Shown piece by piece: positions 1 to 64,000 of a stretch of 64,000 nucleotides of DNA (positions are counted from its first letter, which is position 1; each line of letters begins with the position of its first letter). The notes beneath the pieces are model-generated. The model saw only the letters and a program-made list of their open reading frames with translations. It did no database searches and was not told the origin of the DNA. Made by a program: the position numbers and the translations under genes. The DNA comes from Bilabrum cf. latius (lineage: Eukaryota). The stretch is from the NCBI GenBank assembly GCA_965178125.1, contig OZ237771.1, positions 372,001 through 436,000 of the forward strand, written 5' to 3'.

Positions 1-1283
1 TCTTTTCCTGGCGTCTCCCTGATGAAATACTCCACTGCGGGCGGGTGCCCCTCGCGTATGCGCTGCACGGGCGATTCTGGGGCCAAAAGGAATGATTTGA
101 TGATTCGGTCCAGGGTGGAGGCGTCGCGGAATTGTTCCCTGGCCTCTGCACTGCCGGTTTCCTGGATGGCCGCAATCACGTCGCTCGGCTCGCACCCCCG
201 CTCCCCGGCACCGATGGCCACTGTGACGAGTGTGCTCAGGGCCTCCCTGACGACGTCGTCCTCCTCGTCGCCCTAGCTCCGAATCCACCGCTGGATGGCG
301 GCGGAGATGACTGTCCCTGCGCCGCCGCTGGCCCTCTGCCAGAGGCACTAGGTCGCGGCACGGTCGGCCAGCGCCTGGTGCCCAAGCTGGGAGTGTAGCT
401 GGTCTCGCCTGGCGCGCTTGTCGACCATGTGACGAGTGTACTGCGCCTCCAGCCCGTCCAGGTGCCGCAGGAATGCGATGCCCCGGACCGAGTGCGCCGC
501 TACCACTGTGACGAGTGCTCTGGCGGCACCGAAGCAGAGCCGCATGCGGTCTGGGACGTCCCAGCCGGACTGCTCTGCCTGCGCGCCTGCGCTTAGCACA
601 AGCAGAGCAGACGCTGCCTGCTGCACGATGTGAGCTGCTCCCATGGAAGCAACCCCCGCCGAGTCTGTAGGGTCTGCGCCCAGGGATCGCATGAGCTGCT
701 GCGCCCCCGCCGCCCGCCCGACAGAGCTCGCCGGCTGGGCAAGCAGCCGAAGCAGGCTGTAGACATCCATCGAACGAGGAGACATAAGAGAATCTCCAGT
801 TGAAGATGCTTCGCGGCCGTCAATTTGAGACGGCATGATCGGTGCCACAGCTTGCCGCATCGTTTCCATGCTTCGTTGGAAATAATCGAATGGCGAAAGC
901 TCTGCTGGAAGCCACTGCGTCTGCGCGACAATCTCGTCGCCGTGACAAGTCGGTACGGTTGCATAAAACAAATTAGTAGCAGTCGCATGCTCTGCAGGCA
1001 CAGACTTGGCGAGCCCGGAAGGACGTACGCGGGCATCAGCTGGCAGAGCGAACACTGCGGGGCGAGCACATGGCGACGCCTCCCCCGAAGCCTGATACGA
1101 TTGTACTGCCTACCTTGAGATCCTAGACGCATCATCTGCGGACACTCTCATGGTTCCGTGGAGCATTTTTGCTACATCAGAAGCTTTGAGGTCCGATTGG
1201 GATGCTTGCCCAAGTCCCGCATTGTATTTGTCAGCATACTGCCGTGCTTGCGCTAAAAGTGCGCGAACACGGTCTGATTCCAT
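1..1283 (-). CDS. Hypothetical protein, 3' end runs off the window; 3 in-frame TAG
   Basis: ATG at 1283 (MESDRVRALL). ORFs 1110..1307 and 348..1055 share a frame and are separated only by TAG (1110, 348, about 273). The frame stays open to base 1. Confidence 0.6.
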
Positions 1284-1525
1284 ACTTAGTATATAAATAC
1301 TAGTCACACGGGCGACCGGATTACTATATGATGCTGGAGCAGCGATGAATCAGTTGTGTTCTAGCACGACCGGCCACTGGCATCAAGGATTCATCGAACC
1401 TTCGAAATGAACGTTCCCCCAACATTGATTTTTTTTCCACGGCTTTCGGATTGATAGTCCTACGACTTGCCTGTAAAACTTCATGCGTCCGCAACTCATG
1501 CCAACAAACAATAAATCATGTGCAC

Positions 1526-3186
1526 TCAAGATACCACGCACCCTTTATCATCATCTCTGGACTCCGCGGACCCCGGAGCTCCTCCGCCCGAAGCGCCCCC
1601 CATCGGGGGCCCGCCGGCCCCACCCCCAACCCCATCCGGATTGGGAGGGCTCGCCCACCCACTCGTCACACCGTTACCCGTACCACTACTCCCAATCCCT
1701 CCTGGCGGCGGAGCGTACCAACCCTGACCCCCGGGCCCGCCATTGCCACTGCCACTACCACTGCCACTGCCACCATACGTCGCACCAGAACTCGCCCCAG
1801 ACGGACCGAGCCCGCCGCCCTGAGGTGCCCCCGGGTATGCTCTCAGATCGGGAGCCGAAGGTCCGGGATACGCGGGTGCCTACGGGGCGTACGGGTCGTG
1901 TGACGAGTATCCCGGGCCGCCTACCATCGGGGCAGATCCACCCCCCACGGCCCCGGGGTCATCGCCCCCCCATGAGGGGGTTCCCGTTCCGGCTCCGAAT
2001 CCTGCGCCCGCCGCTCCCGGGTGCTTCTTCGGCGCAGCCGATGCGGAACCTGCCTGCTGGGAGGATGGCGGAGGCGGGGCGGTCGCAAACCCTCCATCAC
2101 CGTGGTACTGGTAGGCCGAGCCAATGCTGCCTGTTGCTCCCGGCTGCGGCCGCCACCCACCCGTAGAGGGTGCTGGTGCACCGGTGCCTGCCATGTCCAT
2201 GGGCGGGTCCTCATCTCTGACCATTGGGCCGTAGGTTGCCTCTAGGATGACGACTAGGAACTCGTCCAGGGACACCTGAGTAGATCAAGCAAACACAAAA
2301 GGGCGAGTGGTAGCAGTTGATGGCGCCATCCGCAAGTAGCAGTAGAGTAAAACCTAGGCCAGTCGCAAAACCTACATATTAAGCTTACCTCGCCGTCATT
2401 GTTTCGGTCTACAACACGCATGAATGCGTCCCCATCAGCTCCGACAGCTGCCATGCCTGTCCGCAGTTCCGAAGAATCGAGCACCATGTTGCCGTCGCGG
2501 TCAAGCCGTCGAAACACAGCGATAGCATTTTCAAGCGTCGGTGTGCTGCCGCTGCTAACGCCGCAGAACAGTCGGCTTGCCTCCCGCAATTTATGTGCTG
2601 CTTCTTTTGTGAGATCATCCAGAACGGGTGGTTCAGCTCCAGTTGTCGTCAGCATTCTGGGCAAAAGAACCCGCAAGAACTCCTCCAGCTGTATCGATCC
2701 ATCTCCATTTAAATCCATTTCACGAAATAGCTAGTCCGCCTCGGAACGAGACACCCCCGGATACCGTCGCATCTCGTCAATCGAAATCTCGCCGTCTCCA
2801 TCTCCAAACTGACGATCGAGATCTCTGAATGTTTCAGCAAGCATATGATGTAATGAATCATTAATAGCAGCATCCTGTCTTCTGGCTAAACTGGACATTT
2901 CTAACTCTAAAGTGTGATCTTGGCCACCCTCGCTCACTTTCCGCGAAACCACATCGCCATCGTCACACCATTGGCAGCCTTCGCAACGTTGCAGTGCGTT
3001 CTCGTCACTACAAGAATAGACATTATACGCTGAGCTGATGCCTGTAACCTCTGCCAAAGACCATTGCACCCTCTTTACTGCCGTGGCAGTGCTCATTCCA
3101 CCCGCTTCCATTGTGATGAGGATGTCATCCACCCCGCACTCCGCACTCTGCTACAGCGGGGAGTTCTCAGCGCAGCCCCGCGGCAT
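1526..3186 (-). CDS. Multi-EF-hand Ca2+-binding protein with Gly/Pro-rich tail and C-terminal CaaX motif (CVVS)
   Basis: EF loops DGDGEISIDE, DLNGDGSIQLEE, DRDGNMVLDSSE and DRNNDGE|VSLDE. The last is completed by a GT-AG intron at 2276-2388. TAG read through at about 3151, 2731 and 1880. Ends CVVS-TGA at 1526. Start uncertain; it may be spliced to the upstream EF-hand segment. Confidence 0.7.
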
Positions 3187-3256
3187 CTGGCGATAAACGG
3201 AGAATACCCACCAGCTCACGACTTCCACATCCTCACGACTGTGTTTGAGCCGATGA

Positions 3257-4292: not shown

Positions 4293-7200
4293 ATGGACCC
4301 ACTGGATTAGTGGAGAGTGAGATCCGATATGCATCGCAGTATCAAGAACTGGCCTTGCCGTTGCGCTTCGGAAGAAATTGCCGTCTGAAGGCTGGGTAGC
4401 TTGTCAACGTGATACATATGTTGACCGTTACATGATAATACCTATGATGCGTTTGCTTCGATGCGGTGCTCTTTATATGTGCCCGGACTCGATGTGCATG
4501 CTATCTATCGTGCAAGAAAGTCCTTTCAACGGTATATCTTCACCGAGTTTACTTTGTCGCAGTTTGATGGCGACGCCGAACTTGCGCAGTGTCGCTTCGC
4601 GGATGCTGTTCGTTGCTATGACAAAGTGAGCCTTGTTGAGGACCACCACGCGTCGCAGCCCTCTAACTGCGCGCCCCCGTCATGCAGCCCCCGGCTGCGC
4701 TGCTCCATCGATCATTAAAAATATGTATATCATACATAATATCACCGCAGGCCATGTCGCGAAGCATCGAAGAGGTGGGTTGCAGCACCCGACGCATCGC
4801 CGCCCTCATCGGCTGCGGCCGGCGGCGGGACATCAGGCGGGCGCTGGAGGCGGCCGAGCGGCTTGCGACCAACAACCCCACGTGGTGCATCGCTGCCCTG
4901 CTCCTGGCCACGGCACAGGCCAAGGCGGGCCTTCCCTCCCAGGCGGTTGCAACCCTGGAGAAAGCCAGATCGCTCCTGGGCGTTGGCAGGCAGCTGGGCA
5001 TACGAGGCTACACGGACGCGGTGAGGGTCGTGACAGACGCGATCGAGGCAGCGTCCGTGTCGGCACAGGCGGCAGGGGGGCTGGGCGGGGACGTGGCAGG
5101 GCTGGAGGTGGAGGGCAAGGGACTCGGAGCCGGAAGTGCTGGAGAGGGGGGCTCGGCAGGCCCCGGGCACGAAGACAAGGAGAGGGAGGCGTGTGACGAG
5201 GACAAGGACGACGGGGCCGGGGACAGCAGCGAGGACGAGAACGAAGAATGCGCCGAGGGGGAGGAAGAGGAGGAGGTGCCCAGGGCGCCGCGCAATCTTG
5301 CGGAACTCGCCATGCTGGACGCTGTGTCGGCGGCCGCGGTCCGCGTCGCCTTGGGCCTGTCCCAGTCCGGGGGCGGCAAGCCCGTTGTTCCCTCGAGACA
5401 ATCGGGCCCATGGTGGACCGAGGAGGACGCCGCGAGAGCATCCGGAGCCACGGGTGTGACGAGTGAATCCGGAGCCCCTTCCACTGCTTCCTCCTCGGCC
5501 GCAGGAGCAGCCTCGGCAGCAGGAGCCGCCACGGAGGGGTCTTCCCATGCCGCCGCGGGACTAATGTCGGAAACCAAGACGGGAGAGGGGAACGATGACC
5601 CGGAATCAAAATTGGCCTCGTCCTCCGGTGGCGACGACGACGATGATGCGGCTTCCAAGGAGGCTGACGACGACGAGGACGGGACTTACAAAGACATGGA
5701 GTATTGGCTGCTGACTGCGGCTCCCCACAGGCCCCCGGACCACGCAGAGGTGGCCAAAGAGGCAGGCGTGGATCTTCTGAGCGACGGTGACGAGGGCGGT
5801 GCAGGCGAAGGCTCGTCTGGTGCGGGGGCAGGTGCAGGGGCTGGGACGGCAGGCGGGGCCAGCAGCAGCAGCAGCAGCAGCAGCGGTGCCGGCGCTGGTA
5901 CTGGCGGTGAAATCGTGGCGGGTGCTGCGCCAGGGGTCGAGGCCGCCCTGACGAGTGTGACGAGTGCGGCCTCTCGGCCGGGCACTGCTGCAGCCGCCGA
6001 GGAGGCCCGCCTGGCCATGGCCGACACCTCCTGGCGGCCCCCTTCAACGACCCGGAGCCATTTTCCCCACATCCACATCGTCAAGTACGGCCCGCACTAC
6101 AGGGGCGTGCATGCCGTGAGGGACGTGCCACCCAACACCCTGCTGATGTCGATCGACGTGCGGTTCCTGATTACCGTGGAGATGGGCAAGCGGACTGACA
6201 TAGGGAGACGCATGGCCCAGGCCAGGCCTCCACTGGAGCTGTCAGCTGCCAAGCACTGCTACACGGCGGTGTTTGTGATGCTAGACATGCTGAACGGGGA
6301 GTCGTTCTATCAGCCGTACTACAGGGTGCTCCCGGCTGCCTTCCCCTCCATACCCGTGTTCTGGGACGACGACGAGCTCAAGCTGCTCGCGGGGTCGTAT
6401 GTGCAGCAGCAGGTGCTCGACAGGCGCGCGAACATCGACGCGGATTACGACGAGATCGCCCGTGTGGCCCCCTCCTTCACCCGGTTCTCCAGGGAACAAT
6501 TCCTGTGGGCCAGGATGATGGTCGCGAGCCGCAACTTTGGCGTCAACATCGGGGGCCAGAAGACGGACGCGCTTGTCCCATACGCGGACATGCTGAACCA
6601 CTACCGCCCGAGGGAGACGCGGTGGACCTACAACAACTCGATGCGTTGCTTCACCATCCACTCCATCGACTCCCTCAAGGCCGGGGAGCAGATCTACGAC
6701 TCGTACGGCAAGAAGTGCAACAGCAGGTTCCTGTTGAACTACGGGTTTACGGTGGACTTCAACCGGGATGACGAGTGCAGCCAGTGCCACAACGAGGTCA
6801 AGATCGACCTCCAGCTGCTGGGTGCAGCGCACGATCCGTGGTGGGGACAGAAGAGGGCACTCCTCGAGTCTGGGGAACACAAGAGGTCGGTCAGGGTGGC
6901 GGCATACCTCTCCCACGCAGGCACCAAGGAGGCCCTCAGCTTCCTCCGGTTTGCCCACGCCCAGAGAACAGAGGTCGCAAGGCTGCCCTATCTCGGGTAG
7001 GAGCAGGACCTTGGTCGCAAGCCCATCAGGCCACTGTCCTGCCGAAACGAAGCAGAGGTGCTTGGACACCTGGCCCAGGTGTGCCGGGCATAGCTGGAGG
7101 GCTACCCGACCACCTTGGAGGAGGACGTGGCCGAGCTGGCTGCGGGGACCTACCCCGTCGGTTGCAACCGGCGGAACTGCCTGGTGCTGCTCCGCGGAGA

Positions 7201-7492
7201 GAAGGAGATCTTGGCCTTCTTCTGCAAGCTGGCAAGGGAGTGTGTGCCTTTGCTGCAGCTGCCCGGTGGCGAGCTGCACGCGGTGCTGGCCTCCGGTCAA
7301 TATGCCGGGGACAGTGACTTGGACAGGTATGTCAGGCAGGTCGTGCGTCCCCTGGTGTTCGCGGAGAGACCCCCTGAAGCGGGGGGGTTGGCCCCTGGGT
7401 CTGGTGGGGGGGAGGGTGCGGGGGGGGTGCATGCCGGTGGCCGAGGGCTTGTGGCGCAGGGGGGGGCCGCGGGGGGTGTAGCGATGAGGTGA
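4293..7492 (+). CDS. TPR + SET-domain protein methyltransferase (SETD3/Rubisco-LSMT-like)
   Basis: SET motifs RGVHAVRDV, LVPYADMLNH and YGKKCNSRFLLNYGF, followed by an LSMT substrate-binding-like region (*LEGYPTTLEED). Introns 4317-4562 (tentative) and 4626-4750 build an N-terminal TPR-like helix pair. TAG at 4308, 6998, 7091. Ends TGA at 7490-7492. Confidence 0.85.
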
Positions 7493-9945: not shown

Positions 9946-11268
9946 TCACTCCCGCGATGGGGGCACATATGGCATTAAATTCCTCACCTCTCCCTTAAAC
10001 TGATCGCAATACGACCACATCGTCGCCTCGAAGGCAGCCGCGTAGTGCCCGCCGTGCACGTCCAGCACTGGAGGAGGGAAATTGTACCGGGCTGCCATGG
10101 CCACGACCTGCCGAAACATGGTGGAGTGCATGCCTCCCACGATGGGCCAGCCCTCCGACATGATCTGCATCGTTGCCAGCATCAGGCTCGCCTCATCAAA
10201 GTCCATCAGGTGCTCGCTTTCGGGGCAGTCTCGGGACATTTGGTCCTCCTTTGATACATCCGCAAGAATGTCCGATACGATAGCACCCGGTTTGTGGTAC
10301 TTTAATGCCCTGAACAGGCACCGGGGGATCTCAATCCATTCAAAATCTGGAGCAAGCTGTCTCAATGCGTGCATGCCACGATTGGCGTCCGACTCGATGA
10401 GGACCCTCTTGGGTCCTCCAAGTGAGTGCAGCGCAAGTCGCAAGGCACGAACATGTCGATTCGGAGTTTGTGGATTTTGTTCATGCTTGGCAATTAACCC
10501 AAACCGGGCGTGCACCACTGCGAATCCACGCCCATCGTCGAGCCCGAGCATCTGCTTCAGCTGAGCAACAAGCTCTGTGACTTTCGGCTTCATCGCGAAT
10601 AGGTGCCACATCACTGCTGCATGTGCCAGCTGCGATCCCTGCAGCGGGTGCCCTGAGAGAACGTCCGCCTTGAATCTAGGACCTGCCCATGGCCCTTCCG
10701 CAATATAGCACTAGTCGCCTTTCCACACTTCCGAAACGGCCAGGAATGCCACTCGAGATTCAGAGCGCAAGTTCGCACTAATATTTAGGCGTTCCAGCGA
10801 TCTCATCGTACCCCCCGCCACAATCTGTTCTGTTGGTAATTCGCACGTCGTTGGAATGCTCATGTAGCAGTCAATCGAGGGTGGCGAGCAGCTGCTATAT
10901 GGACCTAAACTCGGCACTTCGTGTACAACAGGTATACGACCAGTTGTGCGAGAAAGCCAATACCATACCCAAAACTACTCTAGTATTGCTCCGAGGCCCA
11001 AACCTTCTATGTACGAACCACCTATGAGCGCAAGATCACCCTTCGTGCACTGCTGGCCGTCGGACAGCCATTGGATGTATGAATCTGCAATCGACTCCAG
11101 AACATGCGGCAAGTCTGATCGATTGTCGTGCCCGTGGCTGATAACAGCTGTATTCGGGAGGTGCAAGCCCACACCTCCACGATCTATCCTTGCCTAGCAA
11201 ACGTACAGCAGCACAAATGCTGCAAGTGACCGAGCAACAAGCAACGACGAAACATAGTATGTGCACAT
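9946..11268 (-). CDS. Fucosyltransferase-like protein (FUT8/GT23-like fold)
   Basis: Hydrophobic N-terminal anchor from ATG 11268. Motifs GLGAILE*F, AVVHARFG, VLIESDA and IVGGMHSTMFR resemble GT-B fucosyltransferase motifs. Three ORFs joined in frame by TAG (about 11194, 10975, 10711). Ends TGA. Confidence 0.6.
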
Positions 11269-12370
11269 TGAATTGTTACCTTTTGCCTGTATGCGATCCG
11301 GATAGGCTCCTGCTACCCCTACTAGACTAACAGCTTGCAAAGGCATTGTTGGTCAAGAAAATCTGGATAAAAATGCATCATGAGAGTCATCATGTCATGG
11401 TCGATACGGTACACGCCACAATTCCAAAGTGGGGGGGGGGGGGGGGCGGCGTCGACCCCCTAGATCTATCCATTGGCCGTACCTCCCCCCCCAATGAATC
11501 TGAATTAAATGGATCACACCAATTGACCTATCTCGTCATCAGCGCAAAATCAGACCTTTCCACAGACCCCCGGACTGTCAGGGGCTCAAAATCCACTGAT
11601 GGTCCGGGGACCCCTCAGGTCCCCTGTCCGGGGGCCAAAAGTAAAACCCTGAATGGTAAGGTGTCTGGAACTTCCAAACACAAGAGGGAAAGGACCTAAG
11701 CCCGCCACCTATGAGTTTGGAGATGGGAGCGGGTGGCGGGCTGGGTAGCGGGAGTGGAGAGCTGCCGTCGCGTGCCGGCCCGGGGGGTCGCAGCCTGGCG
11801 CCAGCGATGTCGATGGTCGCAAGCAGCAGAGTGTCAGGCACAATGGGCGCACCCGCCGCGATGGAGGCCAAACAGAGTTAGGCGATGCATCCCAGCAGTT
11901 GACTGCAACTGGCTGCCGCCGTGGTGTTGTGTGCTGCTGCAGCCGGGGTGCTGGAAGTGTCAGCTTGCAGTTGACAGCGCGATGTGTGAGCTCACGAGGT
12001 ACAGAGTGCCTGCCGGCGGTCAGCGGCAGCGGCGGCGAAGGAACATGTTTTGAAAGGCCCTATAGAGATGATTGTGGCAGTGTCCCGCCCTCTCCCTGAA
12101 GCCTGGATCGCTTCCGCGCTCGGGATTCAGCAGCGGCAGGGGTAAGGGAGGGCGAGCCGGCCGCTTGGAGCCCTCCCTCCCCAATCAAAGCAGCAGCGCA
12201 CGCAATCCGATCGAATCGATAGCTATCCGGATGTCATACCTTGAGTCCGAAAACCTGCTTTCAAATGTGATTTCGAGCGCTTTTGAGTTGATATCAGATA
12301 CGCCTCCTCGAGCGTTCGCCGACAACCCACGGTCAATTTTAGAAGGAAAAAGAGTGATTTGAACGTGCAC

Positions 12371-16237: not shown

Positions 16238-18024
16238 ATGCAGATAGCTCCCATCGTATCAAGCGTACTAATAATATCATGTGCGTTTGCCAAGATGTCC
16301 GTCGATCCTGACCGAAACCAGTTCGTTGATAGCGAGACAGGCCAGTATGTGCTGTTTCACGGTACAGCAGTTGAAAATGCCGCTGCCCCCGCGTACTTGG
16401 CTGATCAGCAGCTGGATATGATGAAAAAATGGGGATTTAACGTTCTCAGGGTCGGCTTTCACTGGCATTTGTACGAGACAGCCCCTGGTGTCTGGAATGA
16501 AACATACTTGGAGCAGGTTGCAGACCTCGTGAAACGCGTGGGAGAGCGCGATATGCTCGTTTTTCTCGACATGCACCAGGATTCATGGTCACCATTGTAC
16601 TGCGACGGGCACGGCATCCCATGGTTCTACGCTACGCCGTCAAACGACAGCGTGTACTGGGCCCCGAGCGGCAACCTAACTTTCCCGTGGCCCATCGCGG
16701 AGCCAGCGTACGCGAACCCACCCGACTGCTACGATGAGGCAGGTCACTGGTGCCGCGTGTCTGACTGCAGCAACGTGTCGAGCAGCATATTCAGCTGGGC
16801 GGGCACATACGCCACCGCGGCCCTCTCCTCCGGCGCCCAGCGCCTGTACTCGGATCACGCCGTCACGCAGGCATTCCTCGAGTTCTGGACGCGGGTCGCG
16901 AAGCGATTCCGGCAGCCCGACGTCGCCCCCCACATCCTCGCATACGAGCTCATCAACGAGCCGTGGCTCGGGGACATTTACGCGAACGTCTCGCTCCTAA
17001 TCCCGGGAGAGGCGGACAAGACCAACCTGCAGCCATTCTACGACACAGTGTCGGAGTCACTCCGAGAAACTGACCCCGACACAATATTGTTCTTTGAGCC
17101 CGCCACGGGCGGCAACATCCTGGACGCTCCCCCCGCAGGGCTGTCCCACCCGCCTGGAGGCATGGAGCATGCAGGCAAGAGCGCACTGAGCTACCACATC
17201 TACTGCCTTCTACTTGAGGCAGACATGCCAGTGAATCCCGTGAGTTGTAGATTGGTTACATTGCTCTGGATTTTGCACGGCTGTGCTCATACATATTCAG
17301 GGCCAGCCGGCCGGTTATAGTGCATGTTCCGGCCCCAGACCCATCCGCACTCGTCATCTTCTCATGCCCCCGCTCCCCACCGCAGCACCCAGGGAACAGC
17401 TCCACGGCGTGGCTGGAGTACGAAGCATGCGAATGGGGGAACAACATCCAGTTCAATGTCCGGCACAAGGACGTCAAGAAGCTTCGAGTGGCCGGTTTCC
17501 TTTCGGAGTTCGGTGCGGTGCGCGAGGCACCGCAGACCATCGACGTCCTCAGGTACACCACCCAGGCCATGGACGATCAGCTGACCAGCTGGGCCTACTG
17601 GCTCATCACGCCGTCCATGAACTCGTCACACCCCAACTGGGAGCCCAAATGGCTCTCGCGCACATACCCCCGCCGCAGCCCCGGCCCGCTCGTGGCGGTG
17701 AACTTCAACGATTCCACCGGGCACTTCAACTGCACCTTCCAGCCTAGTTCCTAGGCTAACATTGAAACCAGTGGCGACGGCGATTCATCTTCTGCTCTAG
17801 TTCGTGAGCTTGAGCTGTACGGCTCGAGCGAGTTCTACTATCCCCACGGGATTCAGTGGTCTGTCTCGCCCGCCGGTGCTCTGTCTATGGCCAGGCCATT
17901 CAATGCCAGCACGGGTTTGGCCACCTTCGCGCTTAAGGAAGGTGTGACGAGTGATGTCACGCTGACGGTGTGGCCGGCAGCCAGCTCGGCCGGTCGGGAC
18001 TACGAAAAGAAGCGGCGCAGCTGA
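16238..18024 (+). CDS. GH5 endoglycoceramidase-like hydrolase, secreted
   Basis: Signal peptide, WGFNVLRVGFHW, LDMHQD, AYELINEPW (acid/base) and FLSEFG (nucleophile). Intron 17240-17385. TAG at 17752 precedes a C-terminal beta-domain-like segment (ELYGSSEFYYPHG). Ends TGA at 18022-18024. Confidence 0.85.
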
Positions 18025-46702: not shown

Positions 46703-47227
46703 TGGGGCAAGCTGTGGCCAACGAATCAATCGGAGGGTAGAGAGCAAGATGAAGACCAAAAAAAGAGCAACTTTCAGATGCTGGCATTTGGCAAGTATGT
46801 CAGGGATTCGAATGAAGAATAGCACTGTTGTATCCGTAGCTATCATTGGAATCATATATGCTGCGCTCCGAATGCAGAATAGCATGTCCCAGGAACGCCC
46901 GGACAAACAAAGGTAATACACTATTGTCCGCTTGAAACTTGTCCCGTTGTCCAGCTTTAGTATGACTTGTGGTTTACTCCAGTTTGATCCAATTTCACAG
47001 ATAGCATGTTCTGTCCCTGAAAGACTAGGTAGCCAGTCAAGGGGCCAGACAGCCAAAACTGCAGGCAAGGCAGGCCGCGGCAGCAAGTGCACCTGCTCGT
47101 GGCGGCGGCTCGCAGGTGATTCTCGCAGTGAAGCCGAAGCCAGCCCAGCCAGTATTTGATGAAGGACTTGGTGATGGTTCAAATAGAAGATAATGCATCG
47201 TGGACTGTGTTTGTGTCTCTCAGCCAG

Positions 47228-51400: not shown

Positions 51401-52165
51401 ATCCTGCCGACCCCTCCAGTGCTCCCTGAGCATGGCGGACACCGCCCTATCGTCGATGCTCTGGAGCACAGTATCCGTGCCTGCCTGCGTCTCGGCAGAT
51501 GCCACGATCGCATCCGCACTTAGGTCCATCAGGACGGAGCGGTTCACCCGAGCTGTCACGGCAGACAGCTGCTCGCTCATGCGGTTGAGGCAAGTGTCTT
51601 GCGAATGCTCGGCGGCGGATGACTCGCTGATTGGGGATCCATCAATACACGCGCCAGCTCCTGATGGAGCCTGCTTACTGTTATCTTGGTTGGCAGCGCC
51701 AAGCACCTATTCGTTTGACTCCTACTAGGTGGCGTCACCCAAACATGCCTGCATCCACGCCACTGCTTCTGGGTTTGAGTGCGTACCAACGGGGAGCAGT
51801 CCAATTGTTTCCAGCGAAACAAACGGTTCTGGAATTGCATCTTCTGTGATGCTTGCATCGGATGTCATTTTTTTGAGCTAAGCTTTGCCTGTGTCGCTCT
51901 CCCTCTAGTTGTGCTCGTCGTTTGCCTCACCACGCATCAACGCAGAGATTCGCTTCGTTGCACGCCGCATGGAAGCAGTGTGGCGGCTCATCATTGTTTC
52001 AAGAGATGATGCCAGCCGCACGCCTTCGTCAAATGATAGGCTGCGAGCCTCTACTAGAACCTGAATTGAACTAAGCATTTGCTCATCCACCTCCTGAAGG
52101 GATTTCCTCCCTGAAACTGAGAGTCGTTTCTCTATACTAGCAATATTATAGTACATAGATGACAT
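48445..52165 (-). CDS. Large hypothetical protein (about 1200 aa, largely low-complexity)
   Basis: ORFs 51905..52165, 51131..51706, 50747..51022, 50357..50743, 49916..50287, 49295..49819 and 48902..49249 share a frame joined by TAGs. A predicted intron at 48874-48979 links to the 48511..48966 frame. Ends TGA at 48445. Both ends uncertain. Confidence 0.6.
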
Positions 52166-52336
52166 TTCCTTTAGGTATATTGCGCAGAAAGGCTGCAGTC
52201 TCCTGTGATAGGTGAATCCATCCGGACCTAGAAGCTTCCTTTTGTAGCTTCATCTTTCATAAATTGAGCAAGCCTGACTGCCGCCAAGCGCGAGGCTATT
52301 ACTGTGCGTCCTACCATCCGTAGCAGCCAGTCTGCA

Positions 52337-55300
52337 ATGCAACTTGACACAGATTCAGTGTTAAATCTCCCAGCTGACGATGTGATCAGCCTCTTGGAAA
52401 CAGATTCAGCCCAAGGTCTCCAGCAATCTGCTGTGGAAGCCAAGGTGCAGCGATACGGAAACAATGTAGTCGAAACCGGGGATGACGACTCGTTGATCAT
52501 GAAGTTCCTCGAGTAGTTTCAAGATCCAATGATTATCCTGCTGCTGGTATCTGCTGGCATCAGCTTTCTTCTCGGCTAGTGGGATGACGCGCTGTCGATC
52601 TGCTTGGCAGTTCTTATCGTTGTGGTCGTGGCCTTTATCCAAGAGTGGAAGAGTGATCAGAGCTTGGAAGCGCTGAAGCACCTAGCACCGCCTGTGTCAA
52701 ATGTAATTCGAGATGGCAGAGAAATGCAGCTGAAAGCCGAACATGTGAGCCGCAGCAACACCGAAAGCCAGCGTGAATCTGCACAAGTAGCGAGGCTTTC
52801 GCGTAGCTGCTATAGTGCTCGCTCCGTGGTAGCACCACGTTTCAAATATCATAACGCGCATACACACGCACCCTCCCCCGACGCTGAGCCATCCCCCTTT
52901 CACCCTTTCCCTCGCCGCAGCTCGTCCCGGGAGATATCATTCGGCTCCGGATGGGCGACAGGGTCCCAGCCGACGCTCTCCTGCTGGACACGGTCTGGCT
53001 CCGGTGTGACGAGGCCTCGTTCACGGGGGAATCGCACGCGGTGGAGAAGCAGGGTATCCGCAGCAACGACAAAGGGGCGGTGCAGCCCCAGCACGGCGAC
53101 GGCATGCCGCTCCCCCCCAAGGCTAGCACTCGTCACACTGACACCGAGGAGGGGCGCACCGGCCCCAGCAGGCGCAGGGTACCCCCCGGGCCCGGTGGGC
53201 TGTCGTCGTCGTCGGCGGCGACGGCGGGGGCGGGGGCATCAGCAAGCGGCCTGGATTGGAAGGCCTCGCACCCCTCCATGTCCGACCTGGTTGCAACCGC
53301 CTCGCAATCGGGGGCGACGGGCGCCGCGCGGTAGGGGCTCGGAGTTGCCAGCGGAACCGGTTCGCCCGCGCCCGCCCTCCAGGATGCGGAACTTGCGCGG
53401 CGCCGCCGCGAACATCTCGCCCTCATGTCCACCCTGGTGGTGGCGGGGGAGGGAACCGCCGTGGTGGTTGCAACCGGTGCTGGCACGAGGCTGGGTCAGC
53501 TGGTGCAGGACGTGGAGGAGGCGGAAGAGACGAAAACGCCCCTGCAGGAGCGGATGGCCGACCTGGGCAAGCAGCTGACGATCGCATCCTTCCTCGTGAT
53601 CTTCGTCATCGGCGGGATCGGCACACTGCAGGGGAAATCCCTCCTGCAGATGCTGACCATTGGGGTGTCCCTGGCCGTGGCAGCCATCCCAGAGGGGCTG
53701 CCCATCGTAACGGTCGTCACGCTGGCGCTCGGGGTGCAGCGCCTTGCGGTGCGCAAGGCGGTGGTGAAGCGCCTCCCCGCCACCGAGGCCCTGGGCAGCA
53801 CGCAGGTGCTGTGCTGCGACAAGACGGGCTGCCTCACGGAGAACAAGATGAGCCTTGTTTCGGCGTTCGCGCCCGGCATCATGCCCGCCTCCAAGGTTTC
53901 AGGTGTGACGAGTGATGGAGGTGTGACGAGTGCGAAGAGGCGGCCGCGCCCTGGTGACGAGGAGGCGCGCGTCAGGACCATGCTGGAGGGCGGGGCCATG
54001 ATCGCGTTCACCAGCGGGAGCAGCGGCAGCAGCAGGGGGACACCTGGGGACCACGGGGAAAGTGGCAGCGGAACCGTGCAGCGAGGCGCCGCGCAAACTA
54101 GGGGGTTCGCCAGGATCGCGGAATCGGGTCGAAAGGCGGGTTTATCAGCCCCAGTGGACGCCTGCAGCTGCCCGCAGGCCGGGGCGCTGCTCGAGGCAGC
54201 GTCCGTGTGCAGGTCGAGTGCATTGCACGGTGGTGCAGACGGCGCCGAGGACGGAGGGCACTCGGAGGAACAGTCGCACTCGTCACACGAAGCTCCCGCG
54301 CCTCCGCAGGGCAGTCCCTTGGAGCGCATGATCGGACCAGCCGCCGCCAAGCTGGGTCTCGCGGGGGTCAGTCGTCGCTATGACGTCACCGGGATGCTCC
54401 CCTTTGACCCGCTGCGGAAGTACATGGCGGTCAGAGTCAGGGCTCGTCCGGACACGCACGGGATGTGGGGGTTGCTGCACCCGCCAGGCGTGCCGCAGCC
54501 CGGTGGTGTCGGCGCTGTGGCCGGGGGAGGACCGGATGATGGTGGTGCATCAGCCGGCGGGCAGGCAGCCTCCGAGGAGCACCACACTCGTCACACCCAT
54601 GGACCCATTTCACCTTACTCTTCCGCCCCCCAAGCCGGGGAACAACAGCAAGGGGCCTCCAGCGCGCCCCCCACCCCGCTCAACAGCGACCACCAGGCCA
54701 AGATGGCATCCAGGGGACAGGCACCGCTGCCGCCCCCCACGGCTGCCCCTGCCGCAAGGGCAGTCCCCACCCCCCTCAGCACAGAGCCCTCCGCGGGGGA
54801 GGCCTACGTGGGCTGGATGCCCCCACCGGGGAGGCAAGCACAGGCTGCCTCGAAGCACCGGCACCCAGACACGGCCACAGCCACCGACACAGCCTCCCCC
54901 CGGGAGTTTTACTTCGTCAAGGGGGCCTTTGAGCGGGTCCTGCCCATGTGCGACAGGGTTGTTCTGCCCAGGGGGTCACCCTACTCCGGTTCCGCAGTGT
55001 GCGCGGCGCCACGGCGGATCGGGTGGGAGGAGTACAGGGCCATCGATGGGGTGCACGCCCAGATGTCCTGCGAGGGGCTCCGGGTCATCGCGGTTGCAAC
55101 CGGTTGGAGGGTGCCGGCGGGGGAGGCGGCAGAGGCGGAGGCTCGCGCCATGCGTGCTGCGTCGTCCTCGCAGCTCGAAGCGGGTGGGGCGGGGTATACG
55201 AGGGCCGGGCCATCGATGCCTCGGTGGCTGGGCGACGACAGGCAGGGCGCGCTGCCTGGGGGTGCATCGCACGGTGGTGTCGAAGGCCTCGTGTTCCTCG

Positions 55301-56973
55301 GCCTCCTCGGGTTCATGGATCCGATCCGATCCTCTGTGCCCCGAGCGGTCCGTCAGCTGCACGGGGCGGGCATGCGGGTCATCATGATCACGGGAGACGG
55401 GAAGCTGACCGCCGCCGCGATCGCCAAGCAGGCCGGCATCTTGCCGCAGGTCATGCAGGGGGAAGAGGGAAGGCGGCAGCTGGAGCGGCTGGCCCTGATG
55501 CCGGCCATGGCGGAGCGACGAGCGGCGAGTCAGGGGCAGCCGGGGCAGGACGGTCAGGAGGAGGACGAGAAGAAGGACGAGCATGCGCTGGCAGCTGCGG
55601 AGGCGGCGGCAGCGGCGCTCGCGGGTGGCATGCAGGTCACGACCGCGGACATCGAGGCCGGGCGGGCCGCCAGAGCTCTCGTGGGGGGAGAGGAGGTGGA
55701 GCGGATGGATGACGTGGAGCTGTCCAACGCGGTGGCTCTGGGCGCGGTGTTCTACCGCACGTGGCCCAAGCACAAGCTGAGGATCGTGCGGGCGCTTCAG
55801 AGGAGGGGGCAGGTGGTGGCCATGACCGGAGACGGCGTGAACGACGCGGCTGCGCTGCGACAGGCCAACATCGGGATCGCCATGGGCAAAGGCGGCACGG
55901 CGGTGGCCCGAGAAGCGGCTGACGTTGTCCTACTGGAGGACGATTTCGACAGCATCGTGGCGGCGGTGAGGGAGGGGCGGGGCATCTTCGACAACATCCT
56001 GGCCTTCGTCCGATTCCAGCTTACCACCAGCGTCGCGGCTCTGGGGCTGATCGCGGCGGCGTATGCCATCGGTTTGCCCACCCCTTTGAACGCCTCCATG
56101 GTGCTGTGCATCAACCTGATCATGGACGGCTTCCCCGCGCAGTCTCTCGGTGTCGAGCCCGTGGCCCCCGATGTGATGAGGAGAGCCCCCCGGAGCCCCT
56201 CCCAGGCCGTGGTGAGTGCCCCCATGTTGGGGTCAATGGTGTTCACCGCGGGGGCGGTGCTGGGGGTGACTCTGTACGTGTTCCTCACTGAGATTGCAGC
56301 CGACGGTCAGGTTACTAGGCGGGACACCACCATGACCTTCGTGGCGTTTGTAACGAGCGATTTGGTATTGGCGCTGTCCTGCCGCAGCACAACGAAGAGC
56401 GTGCTGGAGCTGGGTCTGCTGTCCAACCCTTTCTTCCTCGTTGCGATCGGGGCCAGCTTCCTCGGCCAGGTCCTCATCGTGTATGCCCCGCCCCTGCAGG
56501 CTGTCTTCAAGACCGAGGCCATCAGCGCTTGGGACTTCGCCTGGGTGAACCTTCTCTCGCTTTCGGTGCTTGGGGTGGATGAATTGAGGAAGGCGTTGGA
56601 GAGAGCGGGCGTTCTGCGGATGCCGCAGAGTTTTCCCGGTGCTTGCGTGACTGCGTGGGACGGTGTGCAGTGGGGCGGTGACAGGGTCATCGGAGTGACG
56701 TGGGGGTTTTCCCAGCGGGCGTGGGGCGTGTGTGCGTGGGTGTGCACGTGCGGGGGCTGCTGCTGCAACGGGGGGAAGGGAAGGGGCAGCAACAAGAAGC
56801 ATGCGGAAGAGGAGCAGGGGGCCCTGGGGGAGGCGGAGGGGGACGGCGTGGGCCTGCTGGCGGGGCAGGGGCACGGGTCCCGGGGTGTTCACGAAGATTC
56901 GCTGCGGAACATTGGCGGGCTTGCTCTCGGCGGAAGTCCCGGGGCAGGGGCAAAGTCGGACAGGGACGTGTGA
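52337..56973 (+). CDS. P2A-type Ca2+/Mn2+ ATPase of the secretory pathway (SPCA/PMR1/ATP2C-like)
   Basis: FLE*FQDPMIILLL, LG*WDDALSI, TGES, AAIPEGLP, DKTG, KGAFE, MITGD, MTGDGVNDA, FQLTTS, INLIMDG and TRRDTTMTF. Intron 52745-52920. TAG at 52514, 52577, 53332. Ends TGA. Confidence 0.95.
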
Positions 56974-57733: not shown

Positions 57734-58086
57734 GTGAGTACAGCATGCATATTTAGCTCATTGCTGGTCCATCAAAATTGCAATCGTCACACGTAAAATA
57801 AAGAGAGTTTAAAATAGGGCGGTCGCAACGCGGCGACCAACGAAACGGCGACGACTTTCGCGCATTTGGCGACCAATTCGAGGAGGCCAAACCTACCGCC
57901 GGGACGTATCTGCCGTTGTGGTTGTTGAGGATATATCAAACAGGTTGTCTGGCTCTCTGGAGTATAATTTAGTGCTGCTCAGTCCCCTGAAACTAGCCTT
58001 GCTGTTTGAGCGACTCGAAGAAGACTGGAGGCAACTTTTACTTCCTGGTCTCGTTTGAACGCAAGAGCGGATCGCGTTGCACAGCT

Positions 58087-61000
58087 ATGGATCCCAATCA
58101 GCATTTATACGGACATGGCGGTGGATAGCACAATGTGATTCAGTTTGGTGGTGGCGGAGGAGGCCACGACAACCAGATGGCATCGGGCGGGTTTACAGGC
58201 CCGGCTCACCACCAGACGTTCGTTCTCGGTAGCGAGCACATGATCGATCCATCAGGGCCTACATTCTATCAAGCCACCGATTCTCATGGAAGAGTGGTCG
58301 CTCAGAGCGCCCAGATGGGAGTACCCGGTGCTAACTACGTTGCTGTTTCCCAGCCCATGCATTACTCCTCTCCACGGCAGGAAACCATGCGACAGGACTT
58401 TAGACTGAACCCGGGGCAGCTTCCCCCCATGGAACCAGGCCGCAGGCCCACTCCGGCGGTGGCAGCCGAGGAATCGCACTCGACGCGTGGTCGAGGCAGC
58501 GCGGGCGGCCAGCCGCGCCCCATGCAGCTTCAGCTCGTGGGACACCAGCACCAGCACCAGCACATGCCACTCTCCGCGCAGGCTGCGTCCATGGCACGAG
58601 GCCACATCGTGGCCACGAGCGGGATGCGCATCCCCGGGGGCGGCGGCATGCTGGTGCTGCCCCCGGGAAGCAGCGGCGGGATGGGGATGGGAGTGGGCGT
58701 GTCGTCGGGAGTGGGGCCGGTGGCCAGCCCCCAGGGGTCGGAGAAGGCGTTTCACTTTGACGGAGGATCAGGCGGCGGCAGCAGCAGCAGCGGCCCCCAG
58801 AGGCACAGCTCGAACGGGTCCATGGGCGGGGGGGGTACCCTCATGGATGTCCCCGACATGGGGGGGGATGGCGAGGGGGGCATGGGGGGGAGCCCCGACC
58901 TAGAGGGACAGCTGCCCATGGACGGCTCCCATGGGTTCCACTCTTCATCTTCATCATCGTCTTCATCTTCATCTTCATCCCAGCATGCGCCCATCCAGGC
59001 ATCCCGGTTCCTTGGGCTAGTGCAGCAGGGGGGCGGGGCTGGAGGACCCTCGGTGATGCAGCTGCAGCAGCAGCAGCAGCAGCAGCAGATGGCTCAGATG
59101 GCTCAGATGCACGCGCAGATGCAGGCACAGGCGGGATAGGTCCAGGCACCCCAGGGGACAATCCTGATGCGATCCTCGTACGCCATGCAGCAAGACCCCT
59201 CCATGGGGCAGACCCTCTCTGTTCCCCAGGGGGTCTCCCAGGGAGTCATGCAGGGGCAGACACTCATCATTCCGCAGCAGGTGCAGATACACCCCGTGAG
59301 CGGGGTCATTAACCTCCCCGCGGCACCCCCCCCGCCCCCGCACTCGTCCATGGGAGGAGGCACCGCGGGGGGGCAGGAGCAGGGGCAGGGGCAGGGGCAG
59401 GGCAGAGGGGGGGGGCGGTACGGAGGCATGCAGCAGCAGATGTCCGCTGCGCAGGCGGCTGCGGCTGCGCTTGCCCAGCACTCGGCGCAGGCTGGGGGTG
59501 CAGGGCACGGTGGTGCATCGACAGGCGCCCAGAGCACGTCACAGCGCGGGGCGGGGGCGGGGGCTGGGGCGGGGGCTGGGGGCGGGCCAAGGTCTAGATC
59601 AAGCGGTGGGGGCCGGCGTGGAAGTGGAGCCGGCTCCTCGTCCAAGGTGGGGAACAAGCGATCTAGGCAGCAACGGGAGCAGGAGGAGGGACAGGGACAG
59701 GTCCCAGGGAACAGCGCGGGCCACGACATCGATCAGGCCGCCGTGGCAGCAGCCGCCATGGTGAGCGAGGCCAGGATGGCAATGTCCAACAGCAGCAGAG
59801 TAGGAGGAGGAGGAGGAGGAGGAATGGGGGGTATGCCTGCATCGGCTTCGTCTGTCCCCACGGTGGACATTCCTGCTGCCCGCGGGCGTAAGGATCCGGG
59901 GTCCGGGGGCCCCCCCGCGCCCAAGCGGTACCGCCGGGGGGGGGGCGGAGAGCGGCACTTCAACGAGCGGGCCGAGATTTCAAAGGCGCTGGCGGAGGGC
60001 AAGGACCTGGGGCAGACCACGGCCGAGCTGCTGAAGCGGCCTGAGAAGCAGAGGCGGCTGGGGAAGAAGGCCTCCCTGCTGGTGGGGAACGTGTACGTGG
60101 GTAGGTCGGGCAAGGTCAGCACCCGAGCCATCAAGAACAGGCCGGAGCTGTTCGGACACGCAGACGGCGCAACGGACCCGCCCTTGGCCGGACTGCTGGG
60201 CGAGAAGACGTGCCACTCGTGCCACTACCGGCGAGCACTCGTCATCGACTGTGCGTGGGCGTCACTCAACAAAGGCAGGCACAGCTACTGCGCCAACTGC
60301 CTCCGTCGCCGCATGAACGTCGATTTCCATGCCATTCGATGCGGTTTCGTCAAGTACCACTGCCCGGTGTGCGAAGGCCTGTGCCCGTGCTCCAGTTGCA
60401 AGAAGAAGAACGGCGGGGTGAAGCCCTTCCCCTTTGAGTACGCACCGTGCGTTGACAGGACGAGGCTCAGCAGCAAGTCGGGGGGCACACTCGAGGCTGC
60501 CCCTGCGGACCCTGTCATGTACCCCGGGTGTGCTGCCCAGTACCCAGGAGGTTCCGTCAACGGCACGGTGGGTTTACCGGATGCTGCCCCCTCGGCTGCA
60601 GCCGGCGGGGCGTCGGTGACCATGCCCAAGCCACCCGCCATGGGAGCTGCGGACCTCTCTGCAGCCGCGAGCAAGGCCGCTTCGCAGGGAACAACGACAA
60701 CCGCGACGTCATCTTCCTCGGCCTCATCTTCATCTTCATCTTCCTCCTAGGCAGATGCACTCAAGGACTCCAAGTAGAGCAAGCACGGCAGCGGCAGTCC
60801 ACCGAACACCGAAGAGACCATCGCCACAGCCACTCGGGTGGCTGAAGAGGTGAGAAAAATGGCGGGCCAGGGAACAACGGGGGAACAGCAGCAGCAGCGG
60901 AAGGAGGCGGAGGGCAGCAGCCATGTGATGAGTGCGGCCGCCGCGGCAGCCGCCGCCGCAGCCGCCGCCGCAGCCCGCAGCACCCCGGGCACTGACCCAA

Positions 61001-61710
61001 GCCTCACCCGGGCTGCGGAGGTTGCCGCTGTGGCCGCCGCATCCGGCGCCGTGGGCCCCCCACCCGTACCCTCGTCTTCATCTTCATCTTCATCCCACGC
61101 GGTACCTCCTCCGGTGGCCCTTGGTCCGGTGAGCCTGAGCACGTCCGTGTACGCCGACAAGCAGGCGGTGAAGCCCCCCCAGGCCGCGCTTAGGCAGGGT
61201 GCCAGGGCTGCCCCCGGACCCCTGGCACCCGGTGGACTCGTGCATGAGGGCGGGGAGGATATGGTTCCGCAAACCGGGGCGGGGCACATGGTGACGAGTC
61301 GTACCAAGGGCAAGGGCAGGGGCAGGGGCAAGAAGGGGGGTGGAGCCAAGGCGGGTGGCCAGGCGACCACCAGCAGCAGGGGGGGTGGGCTTAGGCTGAC
61401 TCCGGCCTCCGCTGCTGCTGCTGCGGCGGCGGCAGCGGCGGGGGCAGCGAATGCCGCAGCGGCCGCTGAGCTCACCGCACCGCAGGTGTCCTCGACGACT
61501 GCTGCTGCTGCGGCGGGGTCTTCTTCTGCTTCCGGTGATGGTGCAAATCAAGATGGGGAAGGGGAAGGGGAGTCGTCGAAGGGCGAGTGGATGGGACAAG
61601 GGACGCAACAGCCAGCGGCCAAGGGCACCTCTGCCCCTGCCTCTGCCCCAGCTGCAGCTGCTTCTGGTGCCGCAGCTGATGACTAGGCTGACGGCAAGGA
61701 AGAGAGCTGA
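58087..61710 (+). CDS. Gln/Gly/Ala-rich protein with zf-4CXXC_R1 (CDCA7-type) zinc finger
   Basis: KTCHSC...C...HSYCANCLRRR...YHCPVCEGLCPCSSC. Three long ORFs joined by TAG (58126, 59137, 60748, about 60775, 61684). Ends TGA at 61708-61710. Confidence 0.8.
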
Positions 61711-61971
61711 AGGAACTGCCCCTTCCAGTGAGCAGAAGGGCGATTAGGGGAATGGATATGACCAGGGCAAGTAAATTGCAAGCCCGCTTGTACACGTACA
61801 TACTAGAGTACCTGTCAAATCCTCTGGTTGGGGCGCCAGCCACAGCGTGTGGCTGAATTGCGCTGAAGTGCAACATTCCGAACGACCTGACGCGTCGACG
61901 GATCAATGAATACTGTACGAACTTACAAGGCCAGCATGAGCTGCAGAAAAAAATATTATTTAAGCGGGGAC

Positions 61972-63279
61972 ATGCGTGCGAAGAGCGCGGTCACAGGGGT
62001 GATAGCGGTCCTGGCAGCCTCCCAATGCGTAGCTCTAAACAACGGCCTCGGCCACCTGCCCCCCATGGCGTACAGCACCTGGAATGCGTTTGGCCCTTGG
62101 CTCAACCAGACGCAAATCCTATAGAACGCTGCAATCATCAAGAACCGCGGCCTGTACGAGGCGGGATACCGAGGCATTCACATCGACGAGGGGTGGATAG
62201 CGAGCAACCGGTCGAAGGATGGCAAACTTGTGGTTGATCAGGCCAAATTTCCATCCGGGATGGAGAGCTTTGGTAAAAGTGTCAAATAGCTCGGATTTAA
62301 GCTGGGATTGTACACCTCGAGAGGAACAGAGCAGTGCGGCGCGGCGAAGGGGTACCATGCCCCGGGTTCGCACGGCTTCGAGGAGCAGGACGTGTCTTAG
62401 ATGGCGTCTTACGGGGCCACGTTCATCAAAGTCGATTCCTGCACGGGATCTTAGAACCACTCTCAGGCGTATGCCGACTATTCCAAGTTCAGAGACGCGA
62501 TGGCAAAGCAGCCGCAGCCCATCTTTCACTCCCTCTGCGGATGGAACGAATGGTATACCCCCGTGGGGTATTCTCTCGGCAACTCGTGGCGGGTGGCAGG
62601 CGACTGCAGCCAGTACGACCACTTCCTGAATGTGGTTGACGCCATGGCCGCCGCGGTGCAGTGGTCAGGGCCGGGGGGCTGGAACGACGCGGACTTGCTG
62701 ATTACCGAGCACACGCCGGCTGTGGGCGGATTCGATGCTCCTCAGCAGAGCCGCCTTTAGTTCAGTCTGTACTGCGTGATGAGTGCGCCGCTGATTATAT
62801 CCGTTGACCTCCGGCAGCAGACCGAGTACGCCTTCGAGACGTATTCCAACAAGGAGGCTATCGAAGTGAACCAGGACGACATCGCCAGGCCGGGGTTCCG
62901 GTTATTGGGGGGTGACGTGGGGCCGTCGGTGGCAGGTGATGGTACTGCTAGGAAGAACTAGAACCAGCAGCGATCGGACCGGGTGCAGGTGCAGACTTAG
63001 GGTAGCACAAACATCTGGGCCAAGCCACTGGCCGATGGGTCCATCGCGATGGTGTTTGCCAACTTCGGGAACGGCTCGGGTGTGACGATTGAGTGCCCGC
63101 TGCAGGGGTGCCTGGACCAGCTGGGCATCGGAGCGGGGACCAGGGTGGCTGTCAGGGATCTGTGGGCTCACTCGGACAATGGAACGTTCGTCGGTCACGA
63201 GGGCCTGTCTGTGCGCGTGGAGGATCCAACTGCGGGAGTGATGGTGCGGCTGACACCGGAGTGGGCATACGTCCGGTGA
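61972..63279 (+). CDS. GH27 alpha-galactosidase / alpha-N-acetylgalactosaminidase, secreted
   Basis: Signal peptide, LNNGLGHLPPMAYSTWN, IHIDEGW, KFPSGM, FIKVDSC, NSWRVAGD, GPGGWNDADLL, APLIIS, VNQD and VRDLW. Seven in-frame TAGs (62122, 62287, 62398, 62452, 62758, 62959, 62998). Ends TGA. Confidence 0.93.
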
Positions 63280-63460
63280 GGGTGAGGGCGAACGTGTGGT
63301 CTACCATTGAATGGCGTGTTGTATGCTAGAAATGTGGTACGGGGCAGGCAGGCCAGCTGCACCCGGATGCAGATCCACCGGTTGACGATCGATCGGAGCA
63401 ATGCTCGTGAGGCATGCGATCCGTTCGGGCTGACTTGGGATAGTATACAAGCTTCTAACA

Positions 63461-64000
63461 ATGGAGCAATTCCAGAGGCGCACGCTCAGAGTCACTAGAT
63501 CAACAAGACCAGAAATGCTCCTCTCGCATACCCGGGTATCACTCATGGAACGAACCACAAAAGCAAGAAGGAAGAACCGAACAGACCGGCGAAGACCTGT
63601 ATACGACGGTAGCTTTGGCAAACCAAAATTTCTGGGTGCAGGTGATCCGTATGATCCCCCTAAAAGCTCAACTTAGTTTTTCAGCCGCCCAGGCTCAGCG
63701 CTTCGCGTGGGCCGGGCAGGGGCAGGTGCTCGATCGACCAGCAGCCTCCCGCGGGTGAGACTGCAACCCCCTGGATAATCACTCAGTTTCACATCATTTT
63801 TCCGTACTATTCGTCATGTACACAATGTGCTTGATTCCACACGGATCGCAGGGAACTCGGCCACTGTCTGCTTCGGGGACAGGCGGCAGGTATTCAGAGA
63901 GCAAGGGCCAGGAGCCAGGCGACCATGATGCTCGCCCGACCAGCCGAGCAAGTGCCGGTGCGCGCAGGCGGCCGCAAAGCGCCGGCCCTAGAGGTCGCCG
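63461..64000 (+). CDS. Possible 5' part of a hypothetical gene running off the window
   Basis: ATG 63461, frame continues through TAG at 63674 to a GTGAGA donor near 63755, with a CGCAG acceptor near 63851. No homology recognised. Confidence 0.3.

Follow-up and report, generated by a model that had tools for sequence, protein, structure and literature searches.

Changes of the genetic code in which UAG alone has left the set of stop codons have been described in the rhizarian exLh, where UAG is read as Leu, in Iotanema spirale (Gln), in Scotinosphaera (Ser), in Protocruzia (Gln) and in phyllopharyngean ciliates, where Gln was acquired twice and Leu once (PMC11687900). The list of UAG-only reassignments in the available text of that paper names no stramenopile, and the accessible portions of three further papers (PMC12152300, PMC12560768, PMC11412368) contain no nuclear stramenopile case; labyrinthulean mitochondrial codes are named in a reference list within the available text. 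Our literature searches, whose coverage excluded subscription journals and supplements, found no report of a nuclear code change in stramenopiles, which agrees with an earlier annotation made by a model from the letters alone (hereafter the sequence-only reading) that knew of no such nuclear code in a stramenopile-like lineage. Here we analyze a stretch of 64,000 nucleotides (positions 372,001 to 436,000 of contig OZ237771.1, Bilabrum cf. latius; hereafter the window) and find that UAG has very likely been reassigned from stop to Gln, with TGA as the main stop and TAA very probably retained as a stop, a code of the type of NCBI table 15.

The window is nuclear DNA with a G+C content (GC) of 0.56-0.65 (about 0.61 overall) and carries eukaryotic genes that are closely packed on both strands. 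When we delimited 21 presumed coding frames (17,712 codons) by TAA and TGA, we found at least one TAG in each of the 21 frames and 97 in-frame TAGs in total, a part of which fall in upstream non-coding or unverified stretches of the stop-to-stop frames. The sequence-only reading had arrived at 90-100 in-frame TAGs by hand count and had described essentially every gene as interrupted, and both statements hold. All ten positions that it quoted (29197, 32738, 35014, 25440, 42653, 51722, 52514, 52577, 62758 and 59137) are indeed TAG, in frame and on the strand it gave. The three tandems that it had listed at 25440, 42653 and 51722 are all on the reverse strand, where the CTACTA of the forward strand reads TAG-TAG, and the TAG at 59137, which it had placed in a Gln-rich run, lies in a zinc-finger frame. 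TAG occurs at 0.0055 per codon in frame and at 0.0058 per codon off frame, and coding frames therefore do not avoid TAG. The most extended case is a reverse-strand frame at 37631-47227 with 3198 open codons, for which the off-frame rate of TAA plus TGA (0.021 per codon) gives a chance of about 1e-29; starting at the first ATG (46702), the frame contains 18 TAGs and neither TAA nor TGA, just as had been reported for 37631-46702. The TAG counts claimed for three essential or conserved genes were also correct, with one in RPC2 (the second-largest subunit of RNA polymerase III), two in MCM5 and six in the DDX1 helicase, the last after we added the first exon. About 11% of Gln codons are written as TAG, and TAG is least frequent in the best-conserved genes.

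The window is contained in 11 sequencing-run entries from six studies, and we compared four of these runs with it over positions 18001-38000. Two runs (X1 and X8) are DNA-like and have no joints; the remaining two (X5 and X7), which come from two further studies, have contigs that skip short introns. X5 and X7, which carry no RNA label in the run listing, had been taken as RNA by guess, and the spliced contigs were then found. Among the 15 joints listed in X5 and X7, 13 have GT..AG or CT..AC ends, and the remaining two have 21-22 letters on the shorter side and look chimeric. Across the four runs there are five places at which any run differs from the window, and none of them is a TAG. This interval has 20 in-frame TAGs, of which at least 11 fall within listed X5 or X7 pieces that have no other letters. 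The RPC2 TAG at 29197 is present in contigs of both X5 and X7 that are joined over the intron 28670-28822, and the gene is covered without other letters by spliced contigs in X5 (28823-32193) and X7 (28823-31954). An X5 contig joined over 20845-20913, likewise free of other letters, contains the DDX1 TAGs at 20824 and 21226, and an X5 record with no other letters joins 22364-23631, the exon of an unnamed gene, to 23821-24279. In an EGF/teneurin-like gene, the TAGs at 25440, 25443, 26601 and 26745 fall within X5 and X7 pieces with no other letters. At the level of contigs, TAG persists unaltered in spliced mRNA and is neither spliced out nor edited.

The sequence-only reading had suggested looking for UAG in mRNA and had named CAG in the mRNA, removal of the TAGs by splicing and consensus errors as outcomes that would overturn its claim; spliced contigs of two studies carry the TAGs unchanged, and none of the three outcomes was seen in the four runs. 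We regard as hardly conceivable the explanation that the TAGs are untranslated, whether as assembly errors, unspliced introns, pseudogenes or mRNA sites edited to CAG. Nothing was found in its favor, with the proviso that assembled contigs hide minor variants. The runs of four studies match the window at every TAG that they cover, the TAGs are retained in spliced contigs, the residues that flank them align to homologues without gaps, essential genes are affected, and a second species has TAGs of its own at conserved Gln positions (the contig L007, described below).

Two other features of the run comparison are recorded here. Several contigs of X1, X5 and X7 break or match with loose ends at 22605-22645 and 26800-26836, and the first of these pieces (41 bases) is found in other contigs with 4 differences; both places are probably short dispersed repeats. 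At 30778-30827, a conserved piece of RPC2, short contigs of X8 with a depth of about 250 match with 3-7 differences and probably represent the same gene from a different organism that is abundant in X8.

When we scanned metagenome contigs with RPC2, 80 loci were returned, one of which (L007, GC 0.54) comes from a close relative of the window organism, with 712 of 791 RPC2 residues identical and 78% nucleotide identity. The window TAG at 29197 corresponds to CAA in L007, and both TAGs in the L007 gene (799 codons, no TAA) correspond to CAG in the window, so that TAG is paired with CAA or CAG at all three sites. One of the L007 TAGs falls at the NQ of a 'YNQ.RIDT' segment, where human and yeast RPC2 have Q. 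The remaining 79 loci have no in-frame TAG aligned to a residue. In the 77 other loci in which the end of the gene is present, RPC2 terminates with TAG in 28, TAA in 25 and TGA in 24, and in L004, a member of the next nearest group (64% identity), the stop of the gene is a TAG that coincides exactly with the end of its homologues. Judged from these sequences, the exchange of TAG with CAA or CAG in L007 and the TAG stop in L004 indicate that UAG reassignment is common to at least two species and appears to be missing from the next group outward. Next after L007 among the RPC2 relatives come L001, L002 and L004 (64% identity), which have a GC of 0.69-0.72 and may be Cafeteria-like bicosoecids on the standard code.

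To read the residue from more distant homologues, we used alignments in which the query carried X at TAG as well as profiles. Human SPCA1 has Q opposite both TAGs in exon 1 of the SPCA/PMR1-type Ca2+ ATPase (52514 and 52577), as the sequence-only reading had stated for the SPCA/PMR1 segments, and Listeria LMCA1 has T and E at these positions. Among 150 representatives, the two columns have Q in 120 and 88 cases; Q is enriched in this set because the search query had Q at the TAGs. In the GH27 alpha-galactosidase, 57 of the 120 homologues have H and 53 have Q in the column of TAG 62758, in keeping with the R-x-(Q/H)-FSLW motif proposed for this site, and at 62452 the nearest homologues have Q. 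For a tally over all usable sites, we built profiles from homologue sets with unweighted columns and summed the log2 odds of each residue at the match states that correspond to a TAG. For the 12 TAG sites that could be aligned, the sums were +19.5 bits for Q, +0.9 for E, -2.3 for H, -6.0 for N and -6.4 for S, and all residues except Q and E were negative; with the ATPase left out (10 sites), Q reached +11.9 and E +3.5. As a control in three genes, we applied the same tally to the 57 sense codons with n>=5, and it gave the correct residue for 56, the exception being CAA (n=8). The mean Gln score per site was 1.19 at TAG, 0.86 at CAG and -2.11 at GAG, and TAG sites thus resemble CAG sites and not GAG sites. 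The proposal that UAG means Gln is supported by the pairing with the close relative and by this tally.

A different residue, most plausibly Glu, with Leu, Ser and Tyr as further options, appears to us highly implausible. Glu ranks next after Gln in the tally and was level with it in an earlier tally that used HMMER default entropy weighting and raw probabilities, and the columns of two sites in DDX1 and one in MCM5 have Glu as the commonest or second commonest residue. Set against this, no TAG pairs with GAG or GAA at the three sites compared with the close relative, all of which pair with CAA or CAG, and the log-odds for E (+0.9) and S (-6.4) lie far from that for Q. The E score is 1.94 per site at true GAG codons as compared to 0.35 at TAG, and even in a flat model Leu and Tyr are 17.6 and 31.9 bits below the best residue.

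We next turn to the codons that still terminate. The window contains 20 frame ends, 19 of them TGA and one TAA, which are partly unverified as gene ends. The ends of RPC2 and MCM5, both TGA, fall at the ends of their homologues, and UGA still terminates. The sole TAA end, a putative gene end, belongs to the frame at 35397. When we asked how many triplets have open, coding-like 40-codon flanks, 54 of 875 TAG, 3 of 403 TAA and 17 of 1723 TGA triplets passed; this codon-usage classifier is weak in GC-rich DNA, the 54 TAGs passing at threshold 0, and it yields antisense false positives. The three passing TAAs are all antisense to known genes, and no recognized gene of the window has a TAA in its sense frame. 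Gln is encoded by 9 CAA and 134 CAG codons in the homology-confirmed coding sequences and by 136 CAA and 612 CAG codons in all frames, and if TAA related to TAG as CAA relates to CAG, one would expect about 6-22 sense TAAs, the figure varying with the ratio used. Within this small sample of 64 kb, UAA is probably still a stop.

These counts bear on the possibility that both UAA and UAG encode Gln, as in NCBI table 6, and that TAA is merely rare in a GC-rich genome. CAA is a minor Gln codon, so a sense TAA would be uncommon in any case, and TAA is found at one frame end only. Against the table 6 code stand the absence of sense TAA where about 6-22 were expected (with 3 of 403 open flanks, all antisense), the fact that no homology crosses a TAA, and the L007 RPC2 gene, whose 799 codons at a GC of 0.54 include 2 TAGs and no TAA. 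We consider this code very improbable; with TGA behaving as a stop and TAA probably doing so too, the data fit table 15, which the sequence-only reading had named, over table 6.

The stop counts also bear on an ambiguous UAG that would be Gln within genes and a context-dependent stop at some gene ends, as in Condylostoma and karyorelict ciliates. The DDX1 TAG at 21226 is ten codons ahead of TGA and could terminate; because the tail of the protein is unconserved there, reading and termination are not distinguished at this codon. Homology fixes just two or three gene ends. In contrast, the homology-fixed ends of RPC2 and MCM5 are TGA, as are 19 of the 20 frame ends, and three TAG tandems lie inside frames. 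An ambiguous UAG is in our view very improbable, and we retain reassignment of UAG to Gln with UGA, and probably UAA, as stops. As a separate observation, a TGA at 9946 on the reverse strand, which ends the frame 9946-11352, has stop-free, coding-like flanks on both sides (scores of 12.4 and 6.6) and may mark an intron boundary or a neighboring exon in the same frame.

On the model of other UAG-only codes, from which we infer the roles of the transfer RNA (tRNA) and of eRF1, a tRNA-Gln with the anticodon CUA, which a single mutation separates from the CUG isoacceptor, would read UAG and would be unable to read UAA, and an eRF1 that had lost recognition of UAG would keep recognition of UAA and UGA. 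A tRNA scan found no tRNA in the window or in the relatives' contigs L001, L002, L004 and L007, an Rfam scan of the window gave no match, and the eRF1 gene is not within the window.

Several observations weigh against the reassignment as we describe it. It is based on 64 kb, and the parts assigned to tRNA(CUA) and eRF1 are borrowed from other codes. Most TAG sites fall in variable columns in which Gln is not the commonest residue, and single sites are for this reason mostly uninformative. The RPC2 site at 29197, cited in the sequence-only reading, aligns with Asn in the human and yeast RPC2 proteins and in human RPB2, and Gln is seen there in the close relative only, a detail on which that reading needs correction. 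The exon-1 sites of DDX1 are dominated by Glu (E 0.52 and 0.47; Q 0.03 and 0.08), and the DDX1 column tally is by itself uninformative, with P, R and a V/K mix. The GH27 column at 62398 has T, W or L, the MCM5 column at 32738 has G or E, and the TAGs at 6998 and 7091 of the SET-domain gene face D and L in human SETD3, a comparison with one distant homologue that carries little weight. The tie of Q with E in the earlier tally and the Q in the ATPase search query belong here as well. Because the RNA evidence consists of assembled contigs, which drop rare variants, minor edited forms would not be visible, and partial editing may have gone unnoticed. The support for TAA as a stop consists of one frame end and the lack of sense TAA, and the DDX1 TAG at 21226 could be read or could terminate.

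To place the organism, we used the conserved genes of the window. The best named match of MCM5 is Cafeteria roenbergensis (58% identity), and in an IQ-TREE phylogeny of MCM5 the query lies in the stramenopile clade with a Shimodaira-Hasegawa-like approximate likelihood ratio test (SH-aLRT) support of 99, within a sub-clade of 15 rows (support 98) of which Cafeteria roenbergensis is the only named member; FastTree agrees. For DDX1, the best named matches by identity are green algae, and the tree places the query in the half that includes the ochrophytes. One cluster in the DDX1 clade of the query has the partial name 'Symbiodinium sp. KB8', which may be contamination or a sign of alveolate neighbors in this tree. 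An RPC2 atlas search returned no lineage information. These are single-gene trees in which most neighboring rows are without names, and they support a stramenopile related to bicosoecids, in line with the stramenopile-like lineage that had been guessed from the letters.

The genes of the window are collected in Table 1. Families were assigned by a Pfam search of proteins in which TAG was masked as X, which also matched a GH5 cellulase and EF-hand proteins. RPC2, MCM5, DDX1, the SPCA-type ATPase, GH27 and the SETD3-like protein each have strong matches in Pfam or PDB. RPC2 matches human RPC2 over residues 3-1111 with 1445 bits. The introns of MCM5 are set by CT..AC joints in X5, with an open spliced frame, and those of DDX1 by GT..AG joints in X5; in the ATPase, a putative GT..AG intron at 52745-52920 is predicted from homology only.

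Table 1. Genes and frames of the window with their in-frame TAG codons (+, forward strand; -, reverse strand)
Feature	Position	Strand	Pfam	In-frame TAGs and end
RPC2, main exon	28823-32157	+	seven Rpb2 domains; matched frame 28816-32157 (+)	one: 29197; TGA end
MCM5, three exons	32345-34396, 34684-34810, 34913-35070	-	MCM, MCM_OB, MCM_lid, MCM5_C; matched frame 32345-34471 (-)	32738, 35014; TGA end
DDX1 helicase, three exons	18262-18329, 18417-20844, 20914-21258	+	DEAD, SPRY, Helicase_C; matched frame 18334-21258 (+)	six: 18274, 18313, 19144, 19909, 20824, 21226; TGA end
Giant TPR-containing protein, ~3020 codons from first ATG	37631-46702	-		18, with tandem 42653-42658; no TAA or TGA
SPCA/PMR1-type P-type Ca2+ ATPase (exon 1 52337-52744, exon 2 from 52921)	52337-56973	+	Cation_ATPase_N, E1-E2_ATPase, Cation_ATPase_C	52514, 52577, 53332
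GH27 alpha-galactosidase, single exon	61972-63279	+	Melibiase_2, Melibiase_C	seven: 62122, 62287, 62398, 62452, 62758, 62959, 62998; TGA end
EGF/teneurin-like membrane protein	24357-28202	-	matched	six, with tandem 25440-25445
SETD3 / Rubisco-LSMT-like SET-domain methyltransferase	4667-7492	+	SET, Rubis-subs-bind	6998, 7091
Frame of unknown function	48902-52249	-	no family match	12, with tandem 51722-51727
Low-complexity zinc-finger protein	57991-61710	+	zf-4CXXC_R1	six in frame, including 59137
Exon of unnamed gene	22364-23631	+		22518, 22770, 23295, 23316, all retained in spliced contig

Two of these proteins have unusual low-complexity sequence. The giant TPR protein contains a very long Pro-Ala dipeptide run at 45700-46100 on the reverse strand, and in the Ca2+ ATPase large low-complexity insertions, which may be coding or may be unrecognized introns, separate the conserved domains (53000-53330 and 54000-55200). 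We also noticed a recurring 12-mer, GTGTGACGAGTG, which has 25 exact sites on both strands of the window and 44 sites with at most one mismatch as compared to 0.32 expected from shuffles (for example at 5454, 12625, 29453, 53903, 53921 and 56968). Its contexts are unique and both genic and intergenic, and in coding frames it often reads Gly-Val-Thr-Ser. Among the 80 related loci it is present in L007 alone, once, at the same RPC2 position. The 12-mer could be a protein-binding or recombination signal. We had guessed that these 'GVTS' peptides came from a palindromic motif, but its enrichment was mild (5 as compared to 0.5 expected) and it was discarded; the actual motif is the 12-mer given above, which is a different sequence.

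Nuclear code changes are rare, and those of UAG alone are rarer still. We judge it evenly balanced whether this is the first nuclear code change in Stramenopiles, a reassignment of UAG alone to Gln in a bicosoecid-related lineage of at least two species (the window organism and L007), made after the split from relatives whose RPC2 is about 64% identical and has kept its TAG stop; its origin would then be recent and independent, and would lie in a GC-rich genome whose main stop is TGA and not TAA. A new independent origin for which both a sister species and a nearby outgroup that has kept TAG stops are at hand would be a test case for the uncoupling of UAG from UAA, for the accompanying changes in eRF1 and tRNA, and for whether GC-rich genomes that terminate mainly with TGA are predisposed to it. 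The organism is present in several public runs and may for that reason be cultivable. There is also a practical consequence. A public protein of 59 residues (P0272) is 95% identical to the N-terminus of the ATPase (window 52337-52513) and ends exactly at TAG 52514, and standard-code gene calling therefore truncates proteins of this lineage. Because standard-code pipelines truncate the proteins of the organism at TAG, its genes are wrongly annotated in public collections, and too few of them enter phylogenomic sets.

Among described systems, Iotanema spirale (Fornicata) is alike in that nuclear UAG alone became Gln and UAA was kept as a stop, according to the account of Panek et al. 2017 in the available text of PMC11687900, from which text the likenesses given below are also taken. 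It differs in that it belongs to Metamonada, an unrelated supergroup, whereas the window organism is a stramenopile with a GC-rich genome in which TGA, not TAA, is the dominant stop. Protocruzia tuzeti and two phyllopharyngean lineages likewise read UAG alone as Gln and stop at UAA, with independent recent origins and a proposed CUA-anticodon tRNA that is unable to read UAA; unlike the window organism, they are ciliates, a phylum with frequent code changes. The lineages that use table 6 (many ciliates, Hexamita, Streblomastix, Ulvophyceae and Amoeboaphelidium) share the change from stop to Gln; however, TAA is also a sense codon there, while here there is no sense TAA and one frame ends with TAA. 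In exLh (Leu), Scotinosphaera (Ser) and Oligohymenophorea sp. PL0344 (UAG as Glu, UAA as Lys), UAG is uncoupled from UAA as it is here, but with another residue, and Leu, Ser and Glu score far below Gln in the window. The code as such has precedents; what appears to be new is the lineage.

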